DNA of 64,000 bases from Escherichia coli (GCF_003334815.1 NZ_QOWO01000021.1), one strand, 5' to 3'; shown: positions 8,178 to 20,176, counted from the stretch's first letter. Notes: generated by a model from the letters alone, not told the origin. Program-made: numbers and translations.

Positions 8178-11100
8178 ATGGACTTATTTGACCTGTTAAC
8201 AATTAAATTTACCTTGCCCGCGAAAGCTGCCCCTGTAAGAAAAGTGGGTGGGAATTATGTTCATAAATTACTTTGCCGATCAACAACAGTATTGGCTCAA
8301 GTCAGAAATGCACGTTTCCAAGGATATTTTGAACTTGTTACGGGTCTAAAGCCCCCTCTGGACTATGTCTATCTGAAAGATCCAAATTCCAGGGGTAAAT
8401 GCGCAGATGGTGTAGCTTCCCTTAAAGCTAAGGAACCATTTACATTCGAAAAATGGCGAGAAGATACTGAGTTAAGCTGGGAGCAATTTCCAGAGCAGGT
8501 AATTAGCACTTCACCTAATGAAATTAATGAACAATGGCATCATCAATTTCAGTTTAGAGAGGACGATCCAGAGCGCAATTCTCCCGGTCTCAGAAAACCC
8601 CAACTGGGTGCACTTCATGCAATTGCAGGCTATTTCGCCACTGATTTGCAGGTAGAACCTGCTACCGTCGTACTGCCCACTGGAACGGGAAAAACGGAAA
8701 CAATGCTGGCTACCATGATATACCAGCGATGCGAGCGAATTTTGCTCATAGTCCCATCTGACTCTCTCCGAACACAGATATCCAAAAAGTTCATCGATTT
8801 AGGATATTTGCCAGAGCTAACAGTCGTTCCACCCAACATTGCACTTCCTAATGTCGCCATTATTAAGAAAGGAATTCAGGTAGCGGAAGAAGCTAAGCAA
8901 TTAGCTTGTGAATCAAACGTCTTGGTTGCTACGACCAGCGTTTTGTCTGCCTGCTCCGAAACAGCATTAAATGCACTTTGCGAGTTGTGTAGCCATCTTT
9001 TTGTTGATGAGGCTCATCATATCTCAGCCTCATCATGGCAGACAATTCGCAAACGATTTAAAAACAAACGTGTAGTGCAGTTTACAGCTACCCCTTTTAG
9101 GAATGATAAAAAGTCCCTTGGTGGGAAAATTATCTATAACTACACGATGGGGGAAGCCCAACGAGCAGGCTATTTTACAAATGTAAATTTGCTGCCTGTA
9201 GAAGAGTATTACTCTGACCTTATGGATCACGCAATCGCAGATAAAGCTGTTGGCCAACTGCGTATAGACTTAAATAATGGCCTTGATCATTTGCTTATGG
9301 CCCGTACTAGCAATAAGCAGCGAGCAGAAGAAATACTGACTATTTATCAGAATATTGTACCGAACTTTAATCCAATCGTTATTCATTCTGATTATCCTAA
9401 AACGGAAATAAAAAAACGTCTTAATAAATTATTATCAAGACAATCAAGAATCGTTATTTGCGTAGACATGTTGGGAGAAGGCTATGACCTACCCAACCTG
9501 AAAATTGCCGCTTTGCATGATCACCATAAGTCTCTTGCAGTAACTTTGCAGTTTATTGGCCGTTTTACTCGTGTCAATAAAGCACAGAAAATTGGTCAAG
9601 CTAGTGTAGTCATGAATGTTGCAGACCCTAATGTTGAAGGTGAATTACAGCATCTATATTCAACAGATGCCGATTGGGATAACGTATTAAGGCGACTCTC
9701 TGAAGGACGAATTGCTAGAGAGATTAGGTTGCAAGAGGTCGTGGATGCCTTAAAAAGGAAAGGTGATTTACACGATCAGATCTCTCTCTGGAACCTTGAG
9801 CCAAGTTGTTCTGTCATGTTATTTAAAACATACTGTGACAATTGGGAGCCTGAAAGATACAAGGAAAAACTGCCTAGATTCGATGAATCATGGCATGCAA
9901 TAGCAGAAGATGAGAATTTGCTTGTTGTGCTAGCTGTCCAGACAACTTCAGTCCGGTGGGGAAACTACAAAGATCTTAAAGATACCAATTATAAAATTCT
10001 AATTGCTCATTGGGATCAAAGCAGATCCGCCTTGTTTGTATTCTCAAATGACTATAAAGCATTCCGGGTTGAGAATCTGGTTAGTACTATTTGTGATGAT
10101 AAATTTGAAATTGTCAGTGGTGAAAAAGTTTTTAATGTATTTAATGGTATTGAATATCCTTTAGCAAGAAATTTAGGCGCATCCCAAATTGGAGCAATAA
10201 GCTTTACTCAATATTTTGGCCCAAATGTCACTGAGGGGCTATCACTAATTGAAGCGTCTCAATCAAGCTTAAGCAATATTGCTGCATTAGGTTATGAATC
10301 CGGAAACCGTGTAATCTGGGGATGCTCGCAACGCAGAGGTAAGGTCTGGTCACCACAAAAAGGGGGTAGCATTGCTGATTGGTGCAACTGGGTTAAGAAA
10401 ACTTGGGACAAAATCTTTAGTTCTGAACCAGATCCAAACAACCTTACGCGTAACTTTTTGCGTCCTGTCCCATTACTCGAACCCTATAATGAATATCCAA
10501 TATCAGCTCAATGGGGTGAGTATTTGCTTACTACGTTCGAAGATAAAGTTATTTTTCATTTTGATGCTATATCAGCTCACTTATATTTAGTAGATGTGAA
10601 GACTGCTGGAAAGTTTGACGATGGCAATGTGCGGCTCATTTTTTCTACAGATGAAACTTCATCTGAATATAAATTATGTCTTACAGGTAGTACTACAGCA
10701 AAAGGTTATGCCTATCAGTTGATTTCTGGCCCTGAAGTCTTTGTACAGCGAGGTGAATCTGAACCTGTATCACTATCAGAATATATGGAAATTGATCCAG
10801 TAATGATTCATTACTCCGATGGCTCATTTTCTTACAACGCTCATATAGTTCATGTAAGCCCAAATATTGGCCTTTATGACAAAGACGAAATTGTAGCTTT
10901 TGATTGGAATGGAACTGATGTTCGACTGGAATCAATGGGCTATACTCGTGATCCATCATCCATCCAGTGGCGTTGGTACAGTGAAATTAAAGATAATTAC
11001 GATGTTATTATTAATGACGACGGTAAAGGTGAGTCAGCTGATTTAGTTGGGTTAAGAATAGTTGATGACTGTATTGTTCTCTCTTTAATTCATTGCAAGT

Positions 11101-11459
11101 ATTCAGGCTCAGAAGAAGCTGGAGCAAGACTTAAAGATCTTTACGAAGTATGTGGGCAGGCACAGAGATGCATTCGTTGGAAGCACCTGAATCTTTCCTA
11201 TTTATACCACCACATTAAGCGGCGCGAGGAACAGTGGCGATCGCTTGGTCATTCTCGCTTTCTAAAAGGCACTATAAAAGACCTTGCAGCTATGAAAGAG
11301 CGCTCCAGAATCACACCTCTTAAATTCCAAGTTGTTATTGTTCAACCAGGACTTAGAGTAAACAAAATTAATGAAGAAGGCCTTAAGTTACTTGGCAGTA
11401 CGGCCTTATTTATCAAGAAAACAACGATGGCAGACTTAGTTGTTATTGGTTCTAAATAG
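8178..11459 (+). CDS. SF2 helicase, DEAH/ResIII-type, with ~600-aa C-terminal region of unknown function (1093 aa)
   Basis: Motif I LPTGTGKT, motif II FVDEAHH, motif III FTATP, motif VI QFIGRFTR; RBS agagg 8 bp upstream of ATG; visibly AT-rich; possible nuclease-like signature ...DDGKGESADLVGLRIVDD...LIHCKYSG near the C-terminus. Confidence 0.8.
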   Translation: MDLFDLLTIKFTLPAKAAPVRKVGGNYVHKLLCRSTTVLAQVRNARFQGYFELVTGLKPPLDYVYLKDPNSRGKCADGVASLKAKEPFTFEKWREDTELSWEQFPEQVISTSPNEINEQWHHQFQFREDDPERNSPGLRKPQLGALHAIAGYFATDLQVEPATVVLPTGTGKTETMLATMIYQRCERILLIVPSDSLRTQISKKFIDLGYLPELTVVPPNIALPNVAIIKKGIQVAEEAKQLACESNVLVATTSVLSACSETALNALCELCSHLFVDEAHHISASSWQTIRKRFKNKRVVQFTATPFRNDKKSLGGKIIYNYTMGEAQRAGYFTNVNLLPVEEYYSDLMDHAIADKAVGQLRIDLNNGLDHLLMARTSNKQRAEEILTIYQNIVPNFNPIVIHSDYPKTEIKKRLNKLLSRQSRIVICVDMLGEGYDLPNLKIAALHDHHKSLAVTLQFIGRFTRVNKAQKIGQASVVMNVADPNVEGELQHLYSTDADWDNVLRRLSEGRIAREIRLQEVVDALKRKGDLHDQISLWNLEPSCSVMLFKTYCDNWEPERYKEKLPRFDESWHAIAEDENLLVVLAVQTTSVRWGNYKDLKDTNYKILIAHWDQSRSALFVFSNDYKAFRVENLVSTICDDKFEIVSGEKVFNVFNGIEYPLARNLGASQIGAISFTQYFGPNVTEGLSLIEASQSSLSNIAALGYESGNRVIWGCSQRRGKVWSPQKGGSIADWCNWVKKTWDKIFSSEPDPNNLTRNFLRPVPLLEPYNEYPISAQWGEYLLTTFEDKVIFHFDAISAHLYLVDVKTAGKFDDGNVRLIFSTDETSSEYKLCLTGSTTAKGYAYQLISGPEVFVQRGESEPVSLSEYMEIDPVMIHYSDGSFSYNAHIVHVSPNIGLYDKDEIVAFDWNGTDVRLESMGYTRDPSSIQWRWYSEIKDNYDVIINDDGKGESADLVGLRIVDDCIVLSLIHCKYSGSEEAGARLKDLYEVCGQAQRCIRWKHLNLSYLYHHIKRREEQWRSLGHSRFLKGTIKDLAAMKERSRITPLKFQVVIVQPGLRVNKINEEGLKLLGSTALFIKKTTMADLVVIGSK

Positions 11460-11554
11460 GACGAAAAATTGATAATATTCGATTTTAGTAATATTAAATA
11501 ACGAATTGAATATGCTATAAAAATGATGGAAAAAGCAAGAAAAGAGAGTAAATT

Positions 11555-12877
11555 ATGATCCTATTCTTTTATCCCTACATAATGCTTTGCTATAGCGCTG
11601 GATACGCTTTATTGCAAACACTGGATGGGATGGGTGTGATTAGTACCAACTTTGTAGAAATGAACGCACAGGGTGCTCTTTTGAGCAGTTACTGGTCTCC
11701 CAATAAAGTTGCTGTAGTCTTAGGAGGATGTTTTCTTGAGCTCTTTATTTTATTATTACCTTTTGTTTTCTTGAGCTCATGGATACTTGCCAGAAAAAAG
11801 GGACTCATCATTTGTTTTGTTCTTCTTATAACCCCTGGCCTATTATCGCTCTGTCACCTTCTTCCTGCTATCCAGTGGTTGCCATTGACCTATGAAATAG
11901 GAGGTACAGGTGCAACAGGTAACGCAGCTGGACTCGGAAGTCTTAGCTTCATAGGGCTATTGAGTGGTTGGATTTTGGCAGTAATCATTAGTGATATTTT
12001 TGCTACAGGAGAGAAATTCAGACAGTGGACAGATATTTTCCTAATACTGACAGCAGTTGGAAACGGTCTTTTCTGGGTATCAGACAGAGAGGTGGCTGTC
12101 GGTAAAACCGCATATGAGAAAACAATTACGGATATTAATGATGCAGCCAAATACCTTCTTTTTCAGGTGAAAGACTACAGCCGCATGTGTGACAATAACG
12201 GGCTTACCGAAATGTCATCTTGTCAGTGGGCATCGTACATTCAAGAAACGCTAGAAAATATTGCCAGTACAAAATCATCTGTTATTGAATATGTAATACC
12301 TGAAAATCTTGACACCTTCTACCGAATTCCTGAGTACTATAGCAATCAAGTATCTCCAGATAAAATCAGACAGGAATTTCAAGACTTCAATAAAAAACTA
12401 TGCCCAAATAAATCTCTTTCCAAAACAATAACACAATTGCCATCACCTTCTCGATGGTGCCAGACCCCACCCCCAGCTTACTGCAATGCCATTCAAGAGG
12501 GAAAATATAAAACAGGCATGTCAGACCGTTTCGCTGTCGCCAATGAGTGTGTAACTACATCATTATTAAGGTACCGCCAAGTTTTATTAAAAGAACAAGC
12601 TCGTTTATCCTTAAGTAAAAATGCCCCTCATTATAGATGGATGTGGTTTATTGCTATGTCTTTTTTTATTGGAGGGAAAATTGCCAATGTAATGACAAAA
12701 ATAGGTAATGTAGAGAATCGTCTCATAACTGAGAAACATAGAGTTAAATTCATCCTTCTAAAAACATGTGGTTTTATTGTGCGTACATTAATAAGATGTG
12801 CCATCTTATTTCGGAAAGTGTTTTTTTCAACGATCAATTATATCAAAAGATTGAAGAAAATAAAGCATGATACTTAA
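11555..12877 (+). CDS. Polytopic membrane protein of unknown function (440 aa), co-oriented with the helicase
   Basis: Starts 95 bp after the helicase stop with its own RBS; N-terminal ~180 aa form about five hydrophobic helices, then a Cys-containing soluble region, one more helix and a basic tail; AT-rich like the helicase. Confidence 0.6.
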   Translation: MILFFYPYIMLCYSAGYALLQTLDGMGVISTNFVEMNAQGALLSSYWSPNKVAVVLGGCFLELFILLLPFVFLSSWILARKKGLIICFVLLITPGLLSLCHLLPAIQWLPLTYEIGGTGATGNAAGLGSLSFIGLLSGWILAVIISDIFATGEKFRQWTDIFLILTAVGNGLFWVSDREVAVGKTAYEKTITDINDAAKYLLFQVKDYSRMCDNNGLTEMSSCQWASYIQETLENIASTKSSVIEYVIPENLDTFYRIPEYYSNQVSPDKIRQEFQDFNKKLCPNKSLSKTITQLPSPSRWCQTPPPAYCNAIQEGKYKTGMSDRFAVANECVTTSLLRYRQVLLKEQARLSLSKNAPHYRWMWFIAMSFFIGGKIANVMTKIGNVENRLITEKHRVKFILLKTCGFIVRTLIRCAILFRKVFFSTINYIKRLKKIKHDT

Positions 12878-12936
12878 ATAGAATAGTGACAAACACTCAA
12901 TTGCAAGGTCATTCTTTGTGTTGAATGAATAAAGAA

Positions 12937-12970
12937 CAAGGGGTACTTTCTCCTGTACCCTTGGAGTTTA
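12937..12970 (+). terminator. Candidate intrinsic terminator after the helicase/membrane cassette
   Basis: Inverted repeat caaggggtac...gtacccttgg followed by a T-rich stretch. Confidence 0.35.
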
Positions 12971-13395
12971 TATTAGATAATACATCTGAATCTACTCTGG
13001 TGATTCACACTAGCGGCAATAGTGTTTTGTACTCAACCGTTTATACAATAGCATCCATGACTAATTGAGCGTAGAGTTCAGTAAGCTTATTAATTATCCA
13101 CTTATTGAAAGAATTCGTGGAACGCTCTTACCGATAAAATCAGTGAATGTATTGCTCTTGGTGATAATGCCATTGGGAAAAATTACCAACCAGCCATCCC
13201 ATTAAGGCTAGCCGATTAACTTTAATTGAATCGCCACGGATTTGGCAAACAATTCACATGTCTCTACTACGCTTGATTTTTTCGTAGTATAACAGCGTAA
13301 CCCTTTTTCTCCCGGTTTACATACAAGAAACCTGTTCATCATTGCTGATGAAGATATATGCTGCCCTTACACGATAATTGTTTAGGATAGTAACA

Positions 13396-14361
13396 ATGCC
13401 TTTAGATTTAAGTAACACTTTAGTGATTGGCATCAGCGCGACTGCGCTTTTTGATATGAGTGAATCCGATCGCATGTTTTGCGAAACCTATGCGACCGAT
13501 CCTGATAGCGCCATTGAAAAATACCGCGCCTATATGCTGGAGCACGAAAACCAACCTTTACAGCCCGGAACAGGCTACCCTTTAGTCAAAGCGTTGCTGG
13601 GTCTGAACCAGTACCGTCAACCGGATGATAAATCACCGTTGGTTGAAGTCGTTGTGATGTCACGTAACAGCCCTGATACAGGTATCCGCGTTCTGAATAC
13701 TATTCGCCATGACAGGCTCGATATCACGCGCTCTGCCTTTACAGCAGGCGAAACTGTTGCTGATTACCTTGATGCCTTTGATGTGGATCTGTTTTTAACA
13801 ACTAACGTTGAAGATGCGCAAAAGGTGATTGATTCCCGATTCTGCGCCGCTGCAATCCTGAAAGATCCGCCTTCTGACGCATCTGATATCCCGGAAGGGC
13901 AAGTGCGCATTGCTTTTGACGGCGACGCGGTACTTTTTTCCGATCAAAGCGAACTGGTTTATAAGACCCAAGGAATGGTTGCCTTTCATGCTCAGGAAGA
14001 CGCGCAGCAGGATATCCCTATGGAAGAGGGGCCTTATGCCACTTTGCTAAAAAAAATAGCCAAGCTTCAGGAACGATTGCCGACCCGCGTTGAGTATTCT
14101 CCTGTTCGTATTGCATTGGTGACAGCCCGAAATAGCCCTTCGGAAATGCGCGTTATTAAAACGCTAAGAAGCTGGGGGGTATATGTCGATGAAGCTTTTT
14201 TTCTTGGCGGCGTAGAGAAAACAAAAGTTCTGAAGGCATTTAAACCACACATTTTCTTCGACGATCAGGATGTGCATTTAAATACAGCTGCAAAGGTTGT
14301 ACCTTCCGGGAAAGTACCTTATGCCAGTAACTCCGAACTGGCAGAGCGTGAAGCATCGTAA
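13396..14361 (+). CDS. HAD-superfamily phosphatase, 5-prime-nucleotidase-like (~321 aa)
   Basis: HAD motif I FDGDAVLF, motif II LVTARNSP, motif III/IV K...FFDDQD; ATG at 13396 with agga upstream (listed ORF starts at TTG 13378). Confidence 0.5.
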   Translation: MPLDLSNTLVIGISATALFDMSESDRMFCETYATDPDSAIEKYRAYMLEHENQPLQPGTGYPLVKALLGLNQYRQPDDKSPLVEVVVMSRNSPDTGIRVLNTIRHDRLDITRSAFTAGETVADYLDAFDVDLFLTTNVEDAQKVIDSRFCAAAILKDPPSDASDIPEGQVRIAFDGDAVLFSDQSELVYKTQGMVAFHAQEDAQQDIPMEEGPYATLLKKIAKLQERLPTRVEYSPVRIALVTARNSPSEMRVIKTLRSWGVYVDEAFFLGGVEKTKVLKAFKPHIFFDDQDVHLNTAAKVVPSGKVPYASNSELAEREAS

Positions 14362-14552
14362 TTATCGCTGATAAACCATTTAGTCATTAAGGCTGGATGG
14401 TTTGTATACCACACGCAAAATAACGGCCCTACCCCAGATCAATGCTCGCCTCTGAACACCTCTTTCCTGTGCCATTCCACAAACTGTTCGCCCGGATAAT
14501 TTTCTTTAACCGGTGGCAACGCAATCGCTTTTCCCGCAAAATCCCAGAACAG

Positions 14553-15359
14553 TCACTGTACCACTCCACCATCATTTACCGCACCGGAAACTACCACACG
14601 CATATTTTCATCCAGGTCAATCGAACCGCGATCAAACGCTTTATGATGGATTGCGCACAATGCCAGGCCATTAGGTACTTCACAAGGGCCATGGTGCTGT
14701 TTCCATCTGATATGAGCAGCTTCCAGAGCAATCGGCGCATTGTCGTGGCGCATGTTAAAGCCGCAGATAGCGCACTGATAATTGTAAGCATGTAGCACCA
14801 TCTGGCGAAACTTCGGATCGCGTTGACGAAGAGAGGTGCGAATATCAAAACTCCTCTCGTCAGCTATCTCTTCCTGAATACTGGCCGGGAAATGCGCCTC
14901 CAGGAGCTGCTGCGCCAGCGTATCAATTAACCTGTAATTTTTTTCCACCAACGCAAAATTATCGGCATCAAATCCACCAGCGACATTATATTCAATGAGT
15001 TCACGTCGGGGCGGCTGGCGGCTACCACTGGTTGAGCACAGTTCCGCGTTATGTAGTTCCCAGAAGCCATCGCCCTTCAGACGCCAGAACGGCATGTCCG
15101 GGCGCTGGTCACGGCGCTGCGGTCCATAACGTTCCAGGAGATCCAACAGGGGCTCGTAGATTTCAGAAGCATAGTTAAACAGGCGACCATGACTCTGCCG
15201 ATAGTGTGAGAGAACGTACAGCAGCAATAATGGCTTATGTGGCGCACGTTGTTCACCTTTGCGCCAGATGGTGATATTTGATATCGCTTGCTTTAGGGTT
15301 TTGTCAGAGGTCATTGCGTTGAAGAATCCATGAGCATATGTTTGCGATGATGCTCGCAA
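14553..15359 (-). CDS. HNH-motif endonuclease with N-terminal domain of unknown specificity
   Basis: C-terminal HNH signature CAICGF...EAAHIRWKQHHGP...NGLALCAIHHKAFDRG; start uncertain (M1 or the internal MTSDK...). Confidence 0.7.
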   Translation of the reverse strand: MRASSQTYAHGFFNAMTSDKTLKQAISNITIWRKGEQRAPHKPLLLLYVLSHYRQSHGRLFNYASEIYEPLLDLLERYGPQRRDQRPDMPFWRLKGDGFWELHNAELCSTSGSRQPPRRELIEYNVAGGFDADNFALVEKNYRLIDTLAQQLLEAHFPASIQEEIADERSFDIRTSLRQRDPKFRQMVLHAYNYQCAICGFNMRHDNAPIALEAAHIRWKQHHGPCEVPNGLALCAIHHKAFDRGSIDLDENMRVVVSGAVNDGGVVQ

Positions 15360-15519
15360 CTATATGTATATTCAAGGCATTATTGCAGACATCCTTTTTG
15401 CCTGACGGCTCTGTACCTGGCAGATGGAATTCTGAAAAAAATACAGCGACCAACCAGTCCTAAGCGGTCTGGTTGGTCTTTTAAATTTAAACATCAGCCA
15501 AGGAGTAACGGCATTCAAC

Positions 15520-15750
15520 TCACTCGCCATTACCCCGATTGATCTTCGCATAGTCAAACGGCGTAATCGCTCTTTCCCGATTGGCATCCAGAAAATCGAC
15601 CCACCACTGCAACATCAGCTTACGCTCATCCAGATATTCCGCTTTATGGATTATACGCGGCCTGCACTGAGTTACGTCCATGTGGCTCATCTGACGTTCA
15701 GCCGCTTTATCTCGTGCTGTTTTGGTCTCAATACTTCCATGCCGTTGCAA
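15520..15750 (-). pseudogene. 3-prime remnant of a second P4-type integrase gene
   Basis: C-terminus ...ERQMSHMDV...IHKAEYLDERKLMLQWWVDFLDANRERAITPFDYAKIN aligns with the C-terminus of the intact integrase at 18638-19903; no upstream catalytic region. Confidence 0.6.
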
Positions 15751-15918
15751 TTACCTCTTAAACCATTCCTTACCATTTTCATGTCTTCGATAAGAAATCT
15801 TCATCATGCATGATCGATTTTGTCTATCTATTCGATCGAATTTTTTCTTTTTACCCTGTCTTTTGCATGGTTTTAAAATAAGCAACCTTCTTTATCGGGT
15901 GGGTAAGAACCAACGGAG

Positions 15919-16668
15919 ATGATTGAAATGAAAAAGATTATTGCTGTTTCAGCGCTTGCTATGGTGGGCGTATTTTCAGCCCAGGCTCTGGCTGATGAGA
16001 ACAAAACTGGCTTTTATGTGACCGGTAAAGCAGGTGCTTCTGTTATGTCACTTGCAGACCAGCGTTTCCTGTCGGGTGATGGAGAGGAAACATCAAAATA
16101 TAAAGGCGGTGATGGCCATGATACGGTATTCAGTGGCGGTATCGCGGCCGGTTATGATTTTTACCCGCAGTTCAGTATTCCGGTTCGTACGGAACTGGAG
16201 TTTTACGCTCGTGGAAAAGCTGATTCGAAGTATAACGTAGATAAAGACAGCTGGTTAGGCGGTTACTGGTGTGATGACCTGAAGAATGAGGTGTCAGTCA
16301 ACACACTGATGCTGAATGCGTACTATGACTTCCGGAATGACAGTGCATTCACACCATGGGTATCTGCAGGGATTGGCTACGCCAGAATTCACCAGAAAAC
16401 AACCGGTATCAGTACCTGGGATTATGGGTACGGAAGCAGTGGTCGCGAATCGTTATCACGTTCAGGCTCTGCTGACAACTTCGCATGGAGCCTTGGCGCG
16501 GGTGTCCGCTATGACGTAACCCCGGATATCGCTCTGGACCTCAGCTATCGCTATCTTGATGCAGGTGACAGCAGTGTGAGTTACAAGGATGAGTGGGGCG
16601 ATAAATATAAATCAGAAGTTGATGTTAAAAGTCATGACATCATGCTTGGTGTGACTTATAACTTCTGA
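15919..16668 (+). CDS. Outer-membrane beta-barrel protein (porin-like small OMP)
   Basis: Signal peptide MKKIIAVSALAMVGVFSAQALA, alternating aromatic/hydrophobic pattern, C-terminal ...GVTYNF with terminal Phe. Confidence 0.65.
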   Translation: MIEMKKIIAVSALAMVGVFSAQALADENKTGFYVTGKAGASVMSLADQRFLSGDGEETSKYKGGDGHDTVFSGGIAAGYDFYPQFSIPVRTELEFYARGKADSKYNVDKDSWLGGYWCDDLKNEVSVNTLMLNAYYDFRNDSAFTPWVSAGIGYARIHQKTTGISTWDYGYGSSGRESLSRSGSADNFAWSLGAGVRYDVTPDIALDLSYRYLDAGDSSVSYKDEWGDKYKSEVDVKSHDIMLGVTYNF

Positions 16669-16819
16669 CAAAACTGCTCCTGAAAGATAATAATTACCCA
16701 TCTTCTGTAATTAAACGAAGACTCCCTGCAGTAATTGTACTGCAGGGTTGTTTGTTATCTGTTTCACAGGAGACTTCTGATTTTTATTCTCTTCACAATA
16801 ATGTTGTCGATATACTCCG

Positions 16820-18319
16820 ATGAATATCAGAAAGCTGTTTTATACGGACAATATATCCCGGATTTTATTGTTTTTATTCTTCCCGGGCATGTGTGTAATA
16901 ACCACTGCTGCATGCGGATACACTGAGAAGAATTCCACCGGGAATGTGTTGCTGCTGTTTCTCCTTCTGATTCTTGCACACAGAAATACCCTTACATCCA
17001 TTACAGCTCTGTTATTTCTGTTCTGTTGTGCACTGTATGCACCTGTCGGTATGACGTACGGAAAAATCAACAACAGTTTTATTGTCGCGTTGTTGCAGAC
17101 CACGGCGGATGAGGCTGCGGAGTTTACCGGGATGATTCCTGTTTATCATTTTCTGGTCAGTGCCGCGATTCTGGTGTTCATGGTTATTTTCTGGCGGACA
17201 CACCACCGTGGTCAACGTAACGCGATGGCTCTGTTGTTATTCGTATTATGCTCTGTAAACAGCTGGCCGTTACGGATGGTTAAAGGAACAGTTGTGGGGA
17301 CAACTGACACATTGCGTGAAATGCAGCGTTATGAACAACTGAGTCGGCACGGTGCTGACAGCTGGAAAATCCTGCCGGGAGCACCATTATATGACACGAT
17401 TGTTATTGTTACTGGTGAGAGTGTCCGCAGGGATTATATGTCGGTATATGGTTATCCCGAGCCAACCACACCATGGCTGAATACTGCTCCCGGTTTATTT
17501 ATTGACGGTTATACATCGGCAGCAGCCAGCACCGTGCCTTCCCTGAGCCGGACACTGATTTATGACTATGAGCAGAACCCTGATTCAGGCAACAACGTGG
17601 TGGCGCTGGCAGCAAAAGCAGGATACAGCACATGGTGGATATCCAATCAGGGAAAACTGGGAGAGCATGACACACGCATCTCTGTTATTGCTTCTGATGC
17701 GGACCATACTGTTTTCCTCAAGAAAGGCAGCTTTGCTTCCCGTAAAACGGATGACATGTTGTTGTTACAGGAAACAGAACGTGCGCTGACAGATACATCC
17801 ACTCCGAAGGTGATTTTCCTGCACATGATGGGGTCTCATCCGAACCCGTGTGATCGGCTTCACTCCTGGCAGAATAATTACCTGGAGCAGTATTCCCGAA
17901 AAATTGCCTGTTATCTTGCCAGCATCAGTAAACTGGATAACTTTCTTGGTCAGCTTGATGGTATCCTTCGCCGACACTCACGTCATTTCGCCATGCTTTA
18001 CTTTTCTGACCATGGGCTGTCGGTCAGCGACAGTGCTAATCCTGTTCATCATGATGGTCATGTGCAGGGAGGCTACAGCGTGCCCCTGATTATTACCGCC
18101 AGTGATATAACCTCTCATCAGTCCCTCAGCAGAAAAATCAGTGCCCGTCATTTCACAGGTATTTTTCAGTGGCTGACCGGTATTCGTACCGAAAATATAC
18201 CGCCATTCAATCCACTGACAGACGAAGATAATGAACGCATTATGGTTTTTAACGGAGAGAGGTATGTACAGGAAGACAGTCTGAAACCGCAGCCGCTTAT
18301 TCTTCCGGACCACAAGTAA
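16820..18319 (+). CDS. Phosphoethanolamine transferase-like enzyme (sulfatase superfamily; EptA/OpgE/YhbX-like architecture)
   Basis: N-terminal ~150 aa multi-helix membrane domain followed by a soluble domain with VTGESVRRDY and HMMGSHPNPCDRL motifs. Confidence 0.6.
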   Translation: MNIRKLFYTDNISRILLFLFFPGMCVITTAACGYTEKNSTGNVLLLFLLLILAHRNTLTSITALLFLFCCALYAPVGMTYGKINNSFIVALLQTTADEAAEFTGMIPVYHFLVSAAILVFMVIFWRTHHRGQRNAMALLLFVLCSVNSWPLRMVKGTVVGTTDTLREMQRYEQLSRHGADSWKILPGAPLYDTIVIVTGESVRRDYMSVYGYPEPTTPWLNTAPGLFIDGYTSAAASTVPSLSRTLIYDYEQNPDSGNNVVALAAKAGYSTWWISNQGKLGEHDTRISVIASDADHTVFLKKGSFASRKTDDMLLLQETERALTDTSTPKVIFLHMMGSHPNPCDRLHSWQNNYLEQYSRKIACYLASISKLDNFLGQLDGILRRHSRHFAMLYFSDHGLSVSDSANPVHHDGHVQGGYSVPLIITASDITSHQSLSRKISARHFTGIFQWLTGIRTENIPPFNPLTDEDNERIMVFNGERYVQEDSLKPQPLILPDHK

Positions 18320-18637: not shown

Positions 18638-19903
18638 TTACTGTTTTAATGGATTATTAATCTTTGCATATTCAAATGGACTGATAAATCTTTCTCTGTT
18701 TGCATCCAGAAAATCGGCCCACCATTGTAGCATCAAGCGGCGTTCTTCCAGATGTTCTGCTTTATGAATGTAAGCAGCACGTACACCGTTACGTTCCTGA
18801 TGGCTCATCTGACGTTCAACAGCATCGCGGGACCACAAACCTGATTCTATTAACGCACTACATGCCATCGCCCGGAACCCATGACCACAGACATCCCGGG
18901 TTGTGTCATACCCCATAACCCTCAGGGCTTTATTTACGGTGTTTTCACTGATTGGTTTACGTGGGTCATGTGCTCCCGTAAAGATCAGACCATTTTCACC
19001 AGCCCATGTCTGAAGTTCTGCCAGTATGGCTACAGCCTGTTTGCTGAGTGGCACAAGATGTGGTGTTCGCATCTTGGATCCCCGGTGTGAGAATTTTACG
19101 CCTGGCAGAGGTTCGCGCTCAGCTGGAATAGTCCACATGGCATTGTCAATATCAATTTCCGACCAGCGGGCGTATCTGAGTTCACTGGAACGAATAAAAA
19201 CCAGTAAATTCAGCATAACTGCCAGTTGGGTGACAGGCTGGCCTTTATAACCGTCAATACGCGACAGAAGTTCAGGCAGGCGTGAAAGATCCAGAGCAGG
19301 GCGGTGCTGGCGTTTTACCGTGGTCAATGCACCAGCCATATCCAGAGCCGGGTTATATCTGATGATGCCAGACTGTACGGCATAACGCATTACAGCAGAT
19401 ATTCTTTGCTGCAGACGACTGGCGATTTCATAAATTTGTTTAGCTTCTGCAGCACGAACAGGGATAAGCAGGTCCGGGGTACTGAGTGTTGTGATATCCC
19501 GGTTGCCGATAAAGGGGAAAACGTGTGTCTCGAGGCTTTTGAGTACTTTATCGCTGTGTGATTGTGCCCATTGTTTATTACTGACATGCCAGCGTCGTGC
19601 AATATGTTCAAAAGAGAGTTGTAAATCAGGGACTACTTTTTTAGCTCTTTTCTGTTCGCAAGGGTCAATCCCCTCCGAAATCAGTTTTCGGGCTTCATCC
19701 CGTTTTGTACGAGCTTCGGAGAGAGATACTTCCGGATACACACCAAGTGCCAGAGTCTTCTCCTTACCCAGAATACGATAACGGAGACGCCAGTAACGGG
19801 AACCATTGGGATGTACCAGCAGGAACATGCCAGCCCCGTCAGTGAGTTTATAAGCCTTGTCAGTGGGCTTTGCAGCCCGGATTTTTGCGTCAGTCAGTGC
19901 CAT
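18638..19903 (-). CDS. int: P4-type tyrosine integrase (421 aa)
   Basis: MALTDAKIRAAKPTDKAYKLTDGAGMFLLVHPNGSRYWRLRYR... is a classic P4-like integrase N-terminus; lies next to the tRNA 3-prime end in the same orientation. Confidence 0.9.
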   Translation of the reverse strand: MALTDAKIRAAKPTDKAYKLTDGAGMFLLVHPNGSRYWRLRYRILGKEKTLALGVYPEVSLSEARTKRDEARKLISEGIDPCEQKRAKKVVPDLQLSFEHIARRWHVSNKQWAQSHSDKVLKSLETHVFPFIGNRDITTLSTPDLLIPVRAAEAKQIYEIASRLQQRISAVMRYAVQSGIIRYNPALDMAGALTTVKRQHRPALDLSRLPELLSRIDGYKGQPVTQLAVMLNLLVFIRSSELRYARWSEIDIDNAMWTIPAEREPLPGVKFSHRGSKMRTPHLVPLSKQAVAILAELQTWAGENGLIFTGAHDPRKPISENTVNKALRVMGYDTTRDVCGHGFRAMACSALIESGLWSRDAVERQMSHQERNGVRAAYIHKAEHLEERRLMLQWWADFLDANRERFISPFEYAKINNPLKQ

Positions 19904-20100: not shown

Positions 20101-20176
20101 TGGTGCCCGGACTCGGAATCGAACCAAGGACACGGGGATTTTCAATCCCCTGCTCTACCGACTGAGCTATCCGGGC
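20101..20176 (-). tRNA. pheV: tRNA-Phe (GAA)
   Basis: Reverse complement reads GCCCGGATAGCTCAGTCGGTAGAGCAGGGGATTGAAAATCCCCGTGTCCTTGGTTCGATTCCGAGTCCGGGCACCA. Confidence 0.95.

Follow-up and report, generated by a model that had tools for sequence, protein, structure and literature searches.

A Probable Pseudogene of an EcoWI-type Phosphorothioate-dependent Restriction Gene in an Escherichia coli Island at tRNA-Phe

RESULTS

A Nonsense Mutation Closes the Open Reading Frame

The window, by which we mean the whole stretch of 64,000 nucleotides of Escherichia coli DNA that was analyzed (GCF_003334815.1, NZ_QOWO01000021.1), carries on its minus strand an ORF of 268 codons at 14553–15359, with a TTG start at 15359. 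The first-pass annotation had read this ORF as the gene. It exists on that strand, but its start was placed 15 codons too early and its end is a mutation. The TTG is merely the longest possible start, and the first 15 codons lie outside the gene in every orthologue. The likeliest start codon is the ATG at 15312–15314 (Met1 of MTSDKTLKQ...), which opens the gene in all 291-residue orthologues and in the NCBI annotation; the match to the NCBIfam profile NF045808 begins at profile position 2, five residues past this ATG. Residues of the restriction protein are numbered from it throughout.

Alignment with the orthologues revealed a premature stop at 14553–14555, where codon 254, CGA (Arg), has become TGA, with C as the next base. 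This codon is CGA in the intact E. coli alleles and CGG in Citrobacter and Salmonella; Arg stands here in every intact orthologue, and the TGA of the window is a single C-to-T change (R254*). The ancestral frame runs on for 37 codons beyond the TGA, to 14442, and the true stop lies at 14439–14441. The entire ancestral gene, of the EcoWI type in which a sulfur-binding domain (SBD) is joined to an HNH nuclease, occupies 14439–15314 on the minus strand (876 nt, 291 codons and a stop), and the window holds a nonsense allele of it. Codons 255–291 (LFWDFAGKAIALPPVKENYPGEQFVEWHRKEVFRGEH; 14442–14552, minus strand), the conserved C-terminal tail of the nuclease, are orphaned and untranslated, with their frame still open. 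The gene of EC556, which is 100% identical, is labeled by NCBI as a pseudogene of a “phosphorothioated DNA-binding restriction endonuclease” with an “internal stop.” The probable pseudogene state was missed at first because the ORF simply appears to end at the TGA.

Genomic Surroundings of the Gene

The island that carries the gene sits at tRNA-Phe (20101–20176), beside which lie a full integrase (18638–19903), a phosphoethanolamine transferase and a Tia-like outer-membrane protein. The placement of the gene next to an integrase remnant and convergent with a nucleotidase gene, both proposed in the first-pass annotation, was confirmed. The remnant (15520–15705, minus strand, 186 nt) retains only the C-terminal 61 codons according to the NCBI annotation of the identical EC556 sequence, and these are similar to the C-terminal end of the full integrase. 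In intact loci a full integrase occupies its place, and the remnant once headed the island of the restriction gene. Only the tRNA itself was matched in a search for another att copy of the tRNA-Phe 3′ end, which might delimit this inner island.

The convergent “5′-nucleotidase” gene (PF06189; 13396–14361, plus strand) is intact and matches the PADLOC candidate PDC-S08 (E = 1.7e-134). In E. coli W and Citrobacter, but not in Salmonella, it lies beside the SBD-HNH gene, and it may be an independent single-gene defence candidate. Past the nucleotidase gene the window encodes a 440-aa protein, a 1093-aa helicase, Type I restriction-modification (R-M) fragments, symE, IS200 and orphan CdiA-CT/CdiI modules. 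The same module, consisting of integrase, intact SBD-HNH gene, 5′-nucleotidase, 440-aa protein and 1093-aa protein, is found in Citrobacter amalonaticus; only its integrase, SBD-HNH gene and 5′-nucleotidase are present at tRNA-Leu of E. coli W, and the Salmonella SBD-HNH gene stands among other defence genes without the nucleotidase. Since its surroundings vary across E. coli W, Citrobacter and Salmonella, the gene behaves like a single-gene module complete in itself. The near-identical or collinear EC556 regions, which correspond to window positions 78 to ∼59,700, have no annotated dnd or ssp genes, and across this span the gene is not coupled to a dnd modification cluster. The earlier statement that no methyltransferase lies nearby holds loosely, but for hsdR/hsdM Type I fragments at ∼6543–8099; these are irrelevant to a modification-dependent enzyme.

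Several other features of the region were recorded. Of the Type I system, the window retains the C-terminal part of hsdR and an incomplete hsdM (∼6543–8099). Both hsdM and hsdS are intact in the related islands of W, ZYB39 and 200177, and those of ZYB39 and 200177 also have next to them an intact helicase-family gene, probably hsdR. The 1093-aa protein (8178–11459, plus strand) is a DEAD/DEAH helicase with a large C-terminal half that has no family assignment, and the 440-aa protein (11555–12877, plus strand) has no family match in PADLOC or NCBIfam. The pair recurs with the same spacing in C. amalonaticus and in two metagenome contigs and could be an uncharacterised two-gene defence system. 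A link of the helicase to phosphorothioate (PT) modification was rejected, its PADLOC match to PbeA being weak (E = 8.6e-09) and confined to the helicase core. The tracts at ∼1–5320, 5361–5953 and 6075–6314 hold orphan polymorphic-toxin/CdiA-CT pseudogene fragments with an intact cdiI immunity gene, an IS200/IS605 transposase, preceded by an STnc490 RNA (Rfam, 140.6 bits), and the toxin gene symE.

Between the full integrase and the integrase remnant lie a Tia-like invasion outer-membrane protein (15919–16668, plus strand) and a CptA/EptA-like phosphoethanolamine transferase (16820–18319, plus strand; below the NCBIfam cut-offs). E. coli IAI39 has the same tract of transferase, tia, integrase remnant and a stub of the restriction gene, which represents a further deletion of the structure seen in the window. 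The island (78–16778) is 99.95% identical to EC556, and the core chromosome flank (16773–59681) is ∼96–98.6% identical; the island therefore seems to have been moved between lineages by recombination. In EC556 an IS3 separates tia from the phosphoethanolamine transferase gene and a TRAP transporter insert is also present; the window lacks both.

The N-terminal Domain Is a Sulfur-binding Domain

The encoded protein matched NF045808 (“phosphorothioated DNA-binding restriction endonuclease”) with 381.6 bits against a cut-off of 180 (E = 1.9e-114), with the profile covered only at positions 2–248 of 284. An HNH signature had been noted in the C-terminal part, and it is there: the ORF matched Pfam HNH_2 (E = 6.8e-09), and the HNH (beta-beta-alpha-Me) nuclease core was delimited to residues 165–232 (14619–14822, minus strand) by this match together with alignments to TagI and VcaM4I. 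The N-terminal domain, which had been left unassigned with a sulfur-binding domain among the folds proposed for it, is a ScoMcrA-type SBD by sequence, by profile and by fold. It spans residues 1 to ∼155 (14850–15314, minus strand), as judged from sequence and profile matches in the PDB and from an AF2 model.

A search with the single sequence matched the ScoMcrA SBD (5zmo) to the N-terminal half (E = 1.3e-06). With a profile of 138 sequences, the PDB matches were full-length ScoMcrA (5zmm, E = 6e-25), 5zmo (E = 1e-20), SprMcrA (2e-16) and the Hga SBD (2.5e-9), and the orthologues carry the precomputed Pfam pair PF26340 (DNA-SBD_ScoMcrA) and PF13391 (HNH_2). For the AF2 prediction the protein was conceptually repaired by restoring codon 254 to Arg, and the resulting model had a pLDDT of 94.7 and a pTM of 0.90. 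Its N-terminal half superposed on 5zmo, the ScoMcrA SBD with PT-DNA bound, over all 158 target residues (TM 0.82, target-normalised; rmsd 2.7 Å), in agreement with the profiles. Its C-terminal half matched the structures of TagI and VcaM4I, with the Foldseek match to TagI extending over 125 columns, approximately the length of residues 165–291. No match to SRA, EVE or PUA was found for the protein, and the Pfam and PDB searches gave no SRA match. The ancestral layout is an SBD (1 to ∼155) fused directly to the HNH domain (165–291), without head or SRA domain.

The residues known to be important in these domains are retained. The sulfur cavity of ScoMcrA is formed by H116, R117 (Lys in most homologues), Y164, P165 and A168 (PMC6224610), and alignment to ScoMcrA gave H26, K27, M74, P75 and R78 as their equivalents, all intact in the window allele. 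The zinc ligands C181, C184, C220 and H223 and the catalytic or metal residues H201, N215, H224 and D228 are likewise all present; among the 138 family members these zinc and catalytic HNH columns are invariant or at least 90% conserved. Thus the N-terminal domain was not found to have a non-DNA-binding fold, nor is the catalytic His missing. The family assignment is secure, and the family is already known, named, structurally understood and experimentally characterised. The copy in the window is a member of it by descent and is incomplete as an encoded protein.

The Lost C-terminal Tail Is Conserved and Ordered

We examined the conservation of the 37 residues that follow the stop. Among the 138 family members, whose identity falls as low as 33%, invariance was confined to five columns (C181, G209, N215, G230 and W281), and one of these, W281, sits in the lost tail. 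Four further tail residues (P267, H282, V286 and F287) reach at least 90% conservation in the same sequences, and nearly all of the best 150 distant representatives align through residue 288–290. In the model the tail is ordered (pLDDT 94–98) and includes a helix, 276–285, that bears W281 and H282.

A profile of the HNH domain with its tail aligned to the extreme end of VcaM4I (...YMCYHRENVFKK; E = 1.4e-06). The HNH domain of VcaM4I comprises residues 179–309, up to the last residue of the protein, and forms a dimer interface of roughly 2000 Å2 (PMC7897488). The tail sequence alone gave no match in the PDB, and the link to VcaM4I was obtained only with the trimmed family profile. An equivalence of TagI H288 with W281-H282 of the tail was considered and set aside, the TagI sequence alignment ending before the tail. 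We infer that R254* would remove an integral part of the nuclease/dimerisation domain, because the tail is conserved, ordered in the model and aligned to the end of VcaM4I.

Constraint Is Relaxed in the Clade of the Window Allele

Compared with the inferred ancestral allele, the window allele has nine missense changes (G41S, G49A, A124E, H127Y, M154R, G155S, R175H, G233D and G248D). Three of these, M154R, G233D and H127Y, occur in none of 137 relatives; G248D occurs in one and G155S in four. With five other sampled alleles it forms a clade characterised by A49, E124, Y127 and S155, and all six are broken, either by R254* or by a 1-bp deletion at codon 124. The identical TGA is present in ZYB39, 200177, N10 and Z1323MEC0001. 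Exact 57-mers around the TGA were found in 5 + 9 records, out of ∼187 complete E. coli genomes in which most of the gene is present; allele counts were taken from full-length exact rows only, the 57-mer identity bands being confounded by partial matches. The R254* allele is represented by ∼14 records that differ by up to 2.2%. Further damage has accumulated in members of the clade: ZYB39 and N10 carry the sulfur-cavity changes K27N and P75L, and Z1323MEC0001 has an extra frameshift as a second lesion.

Unique derived changes showed a nonsynonymous-to-synonymous ratio of 30:20 in the window clade against 4:13 in the intact alleles (Fisher p = 0.012, on small counts), and pairwise dN/dS was 0.07–0.09 among intact genes and 0.15–0.25 for pairs with TGA alleles. 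These data indicate that constraint is relaxed in the window clade. The values for TGA alleles are well below 1, which may reflect either some constraint or a short time since inactivation.

The intergenic region upstream of the gene (15315–15519, minus strand) was compared by aligning E. coli W, AR_0089, CP026085 and Citrobacter with alleles of the broken clade. It contains a hairpin with a T-run (∼15435–15480) and the junction of a 10-bp deletion (∼15435). The deleted sequence (ACCGTTGTTA) lay ∼120 nt upstream of the ATG, just past the terminator-like hairpin of the integrase. The deletion is common to the window, ZYB39 and PapRG-04-4, all three broken-clade alleles examined, and the intact alleles are without it. 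It is a candidate for the first hit on expression, which would have preceded the lesions in the ORF. A scan of 14300–15950 for promoter and terminator consensus sequences found nothing upstream of the gene, with sites no more frequent than in shuffles.

The Gene Has Been Broken Repeatedly in E. coli

A relative of the family was found in 3115 of 5426 complete E. coli genomes at blastn sensitivity. Among complete E. coli genomes the gene has suffered at least seven independent ORF-breaking lesions, namely three nonsense changes (W17*, E54* and R254*), 1-bp deletions at codons 124 and 214, a 14-bp deletion at codon 27 and a 3-bp deletion that creates TAG at codon 204, and also two truncations by rearrangement. 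In strain SY3626 an IS1 truncates the gene at codon 255, and ∼55 genomes keep only a stub of 292 nt. The position of the IS1 truncation was considered as a sign of selection for tail-less forms, and this was rejected in favor of a coincidental IS-mediated deletion. Intact alleles are found in W, AR_0089, SA186, AH65, GF43, E6 and CP026085, and the Salmonella and Citrobacter orthologues sampled are intact.

The E. coli W Allele and EcoWI

The intact gene of E. coli W, which encodes WP_000199891.1 (291 aa), is 96.7% identical to that of the window at the nucleotide level over 876 nt. This accession is the protein that Liu et al. 2018 called the “E. coli ScoMcrA homolog” (PMC6224610); its SBD (residues 1–170) alone binds Rp PT-DNA, and its gene, accompanied by the native 504 bp upstream, restricted the transfer of a Salmonella dnd cluster (PMC6224610). 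EcoWI was described by Lutz et al. 2020 as a Mg2+-dependent dimer that recognises GpsAAC/GpsTTC and cuts at N7/N6 (PMC7461809); it blocks dnd+ plasmids in vivo and has a predicted mass of 33.4 kDa (PMC7461809). No accession for EcoWI is given in the main text or supplement of PMC7461809 or in PMC9521924. The computed mass of the strain W protein is 33,409.7 Da, and that of the other E. coli lineage, which is 74% identical, is 33,135 Da. Because the former fits 33.4 kDa and the latter does not, and in view of the strain name, EcoWI is very probably the strain W protein WP_000199891.1.

DISCUSSION

Taken together, these data argue that the window copy is, in all likelihood, a pseudogene of an EcoWI-type SBD-HNH restriction gene for PT-dependent cleavage. 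As an intact protein of 291 residues acting as a dimer, the enzyme would dock with its SBD on foreign DNA at the Rp phosphorothioate sulfur introduced by Dnd systems into GpsAAC/GpsTTC sites. Its HNH domain, at the C-terminus, would then cleave the two strands a few bases from the sulfur, at N7/N6 in the case of EcoWI, and this cleavage would block the entry of PT-modified plasmids or phages. With the C-to-T change at Arg254 (CGA to TGA), translation would end after the beta-beta-alpha-Me core, leaving out the last 37 residues. The TGA, combined with radical substitutions (M154R, G233D, G248D and others), the 10-bp upstream deletion and the place of the gene in an immobilised, eroding island, would most likely result in loss of restriction activity. 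The first-pass annotation had proposed a solitary, modification-dependent, Type IV-like enzyme, which describes the gene family correctly but not this interrupted copy; a restriction phenotype for the window allele is unlikely, as judged from its sequence, and the strain probably does not restrict PT-modified DNA through this gene. The corrective value of the present analysis is that what appeared to be an unassigned domain is an SBD and that the end of the ORF is a nonsense mutation, not the end of the gene.

Against complete inactivation it can be argued that all of the catalytic, zinc-binding and sulfur-cavity residues precede the stop and are intact, that the 253-codon ORF is open, and that the exact 253-aa product has been called as a protein in public data. 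A truncated protein of 29.1 kDa might be made and retain partial function in PT-DNA binding, perhaps with weak nicking, and serve as a binder of PT-DNA or as an attenuated restriction factor. That H26, K27, M74, P75, R78 and every HNH and zinc residue are present favors such a product, as do the binding of PT-DNA by the isolated SBD (1–170) of the W allele (PMC6224610), a dN/dS of TGA alleles that is still below 1, and the persistence of R254* in divergent records. However, the lost tail is ordered, is conserved as much as the catalytic core and belongs by homology to a dimerising nuclease domain; sister alleles have been hit in the cavity itself (K27N, P75L) and by second lesions, as if nothing were being preserved, and the window allele bears M154R, G233D and G248D. 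We therefore regard a partially functional product as unlikely, and a pseudogene as the better reading of the same residues.

The repeated, independent destruction of the gene in E. coli may exceed what drift would produce and could reflect selection against carrying a PT-dependent nuclease, an idea to which we attach little probability. Under adaptive loss, self-toxicity or conflict with the acquisition of dnd-bearing elements would drive the loss, and the R254* product, lacking its tail, might survive as a harmless binder of PT-DNA. The catalogue of inactivating lesions assembled here could feed a population-level study of the loss of Type IV-like defence.

Readthrough of the TGA by a near-cognate tRNA in its UGA-C context could in principle yield some full-length enzyme, making the locus a live gene that has been tuned down. 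Downstream of the TGA, the 37 codons have kept their frame and hardly changed, and the base after the UGA is C; UGA followed by C is a weak termination context in E. coli. [quoted passage not shown] Rfam detected no recoding element, whether for selenocysteine or for programmed readthrough, in the window, and the 76 nt from the TGA onward fold no better than shuffles (z = -0.06) and form no unusual hairpin. On this absence of an Rfam element and of downstream RNA structure beyond that of shuffles, the TGA was rejected as a recoding site. Moreover, the ancestral codon is an ordinary Arg codon with no sign of a recoding site in intact relatives, relaxed constraint and the extra lesions of the clade speak against maintenance, and any full-length product would also bear the radical substitutions. 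Readthrough is thus highly improbable. Finally, an intact solitary Type IV-like enzyme with a new N-terminal reader of glucosyl-hmC or methylation, to which the HNH motif and the solitary position of the gene had pointed, can be dismissed, as it is refuted by the SBD assignment from sequence, profile and fold and by the interruption of the gene, and as no SRA, EVE or PUA match was obtained.

Comparison with Known Systems

The closest characterised relative of the window gene is that of E. coli W (WP_000199891.1), with which it shares length, frame, domain order, the integrase/restriction gene/5′-nucleotidase module and identical sulfur-cavity and catalytic residues. The window allele differs in having R254*, the nine missense changes and the 10-bp upstream deletion, and it lies at tRNA-Phe behind an integrase remnant, whereas the W gene lies at tRNA-Leu behind a full integrase.

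ScoMcrA of Streptomyces coelicolor (5ZMM, 5ZMO), a Type IV PT- and 5mC-dependent endonuclease of 561 aa, has a homologous SBD with an equivalent H-[R/K]...[Y/M]-P cavity and resembles the window family in its C-terminal HNH nuclease and its dimeric state. Unlike that family, it possesses a head domain and, placed between SBD and HNH, an SRA domain, and it prefers GpsGCC and cuts at a variable distance. SprMcrA, Ksp11411I and Bsp305I have the same two-domain SBD-HNH layout and the same PT dependence (PMC7461809), but their identity to EcoWI is only ∼28–31%, and their metal preferences and cut distances are different (PMC7461809).

VcaM4I (EVE-HNH, 6YEX) and TagI (SRA-HNH, 6GHS) share a homologous HNH nuclease/dimerisation domain with the window family, and VcaM4I also shares its C-terminal [W/Y]-H-R-x-x-V-F ending. 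Their sensors, EVE in VcaM4I and SRA in TagI, read modified cytosine and not phosphorothioate. It is only the HNH half of the window protein that matches these two enzymes, whereas its N-terminal half matches the sulfur-binding domains.
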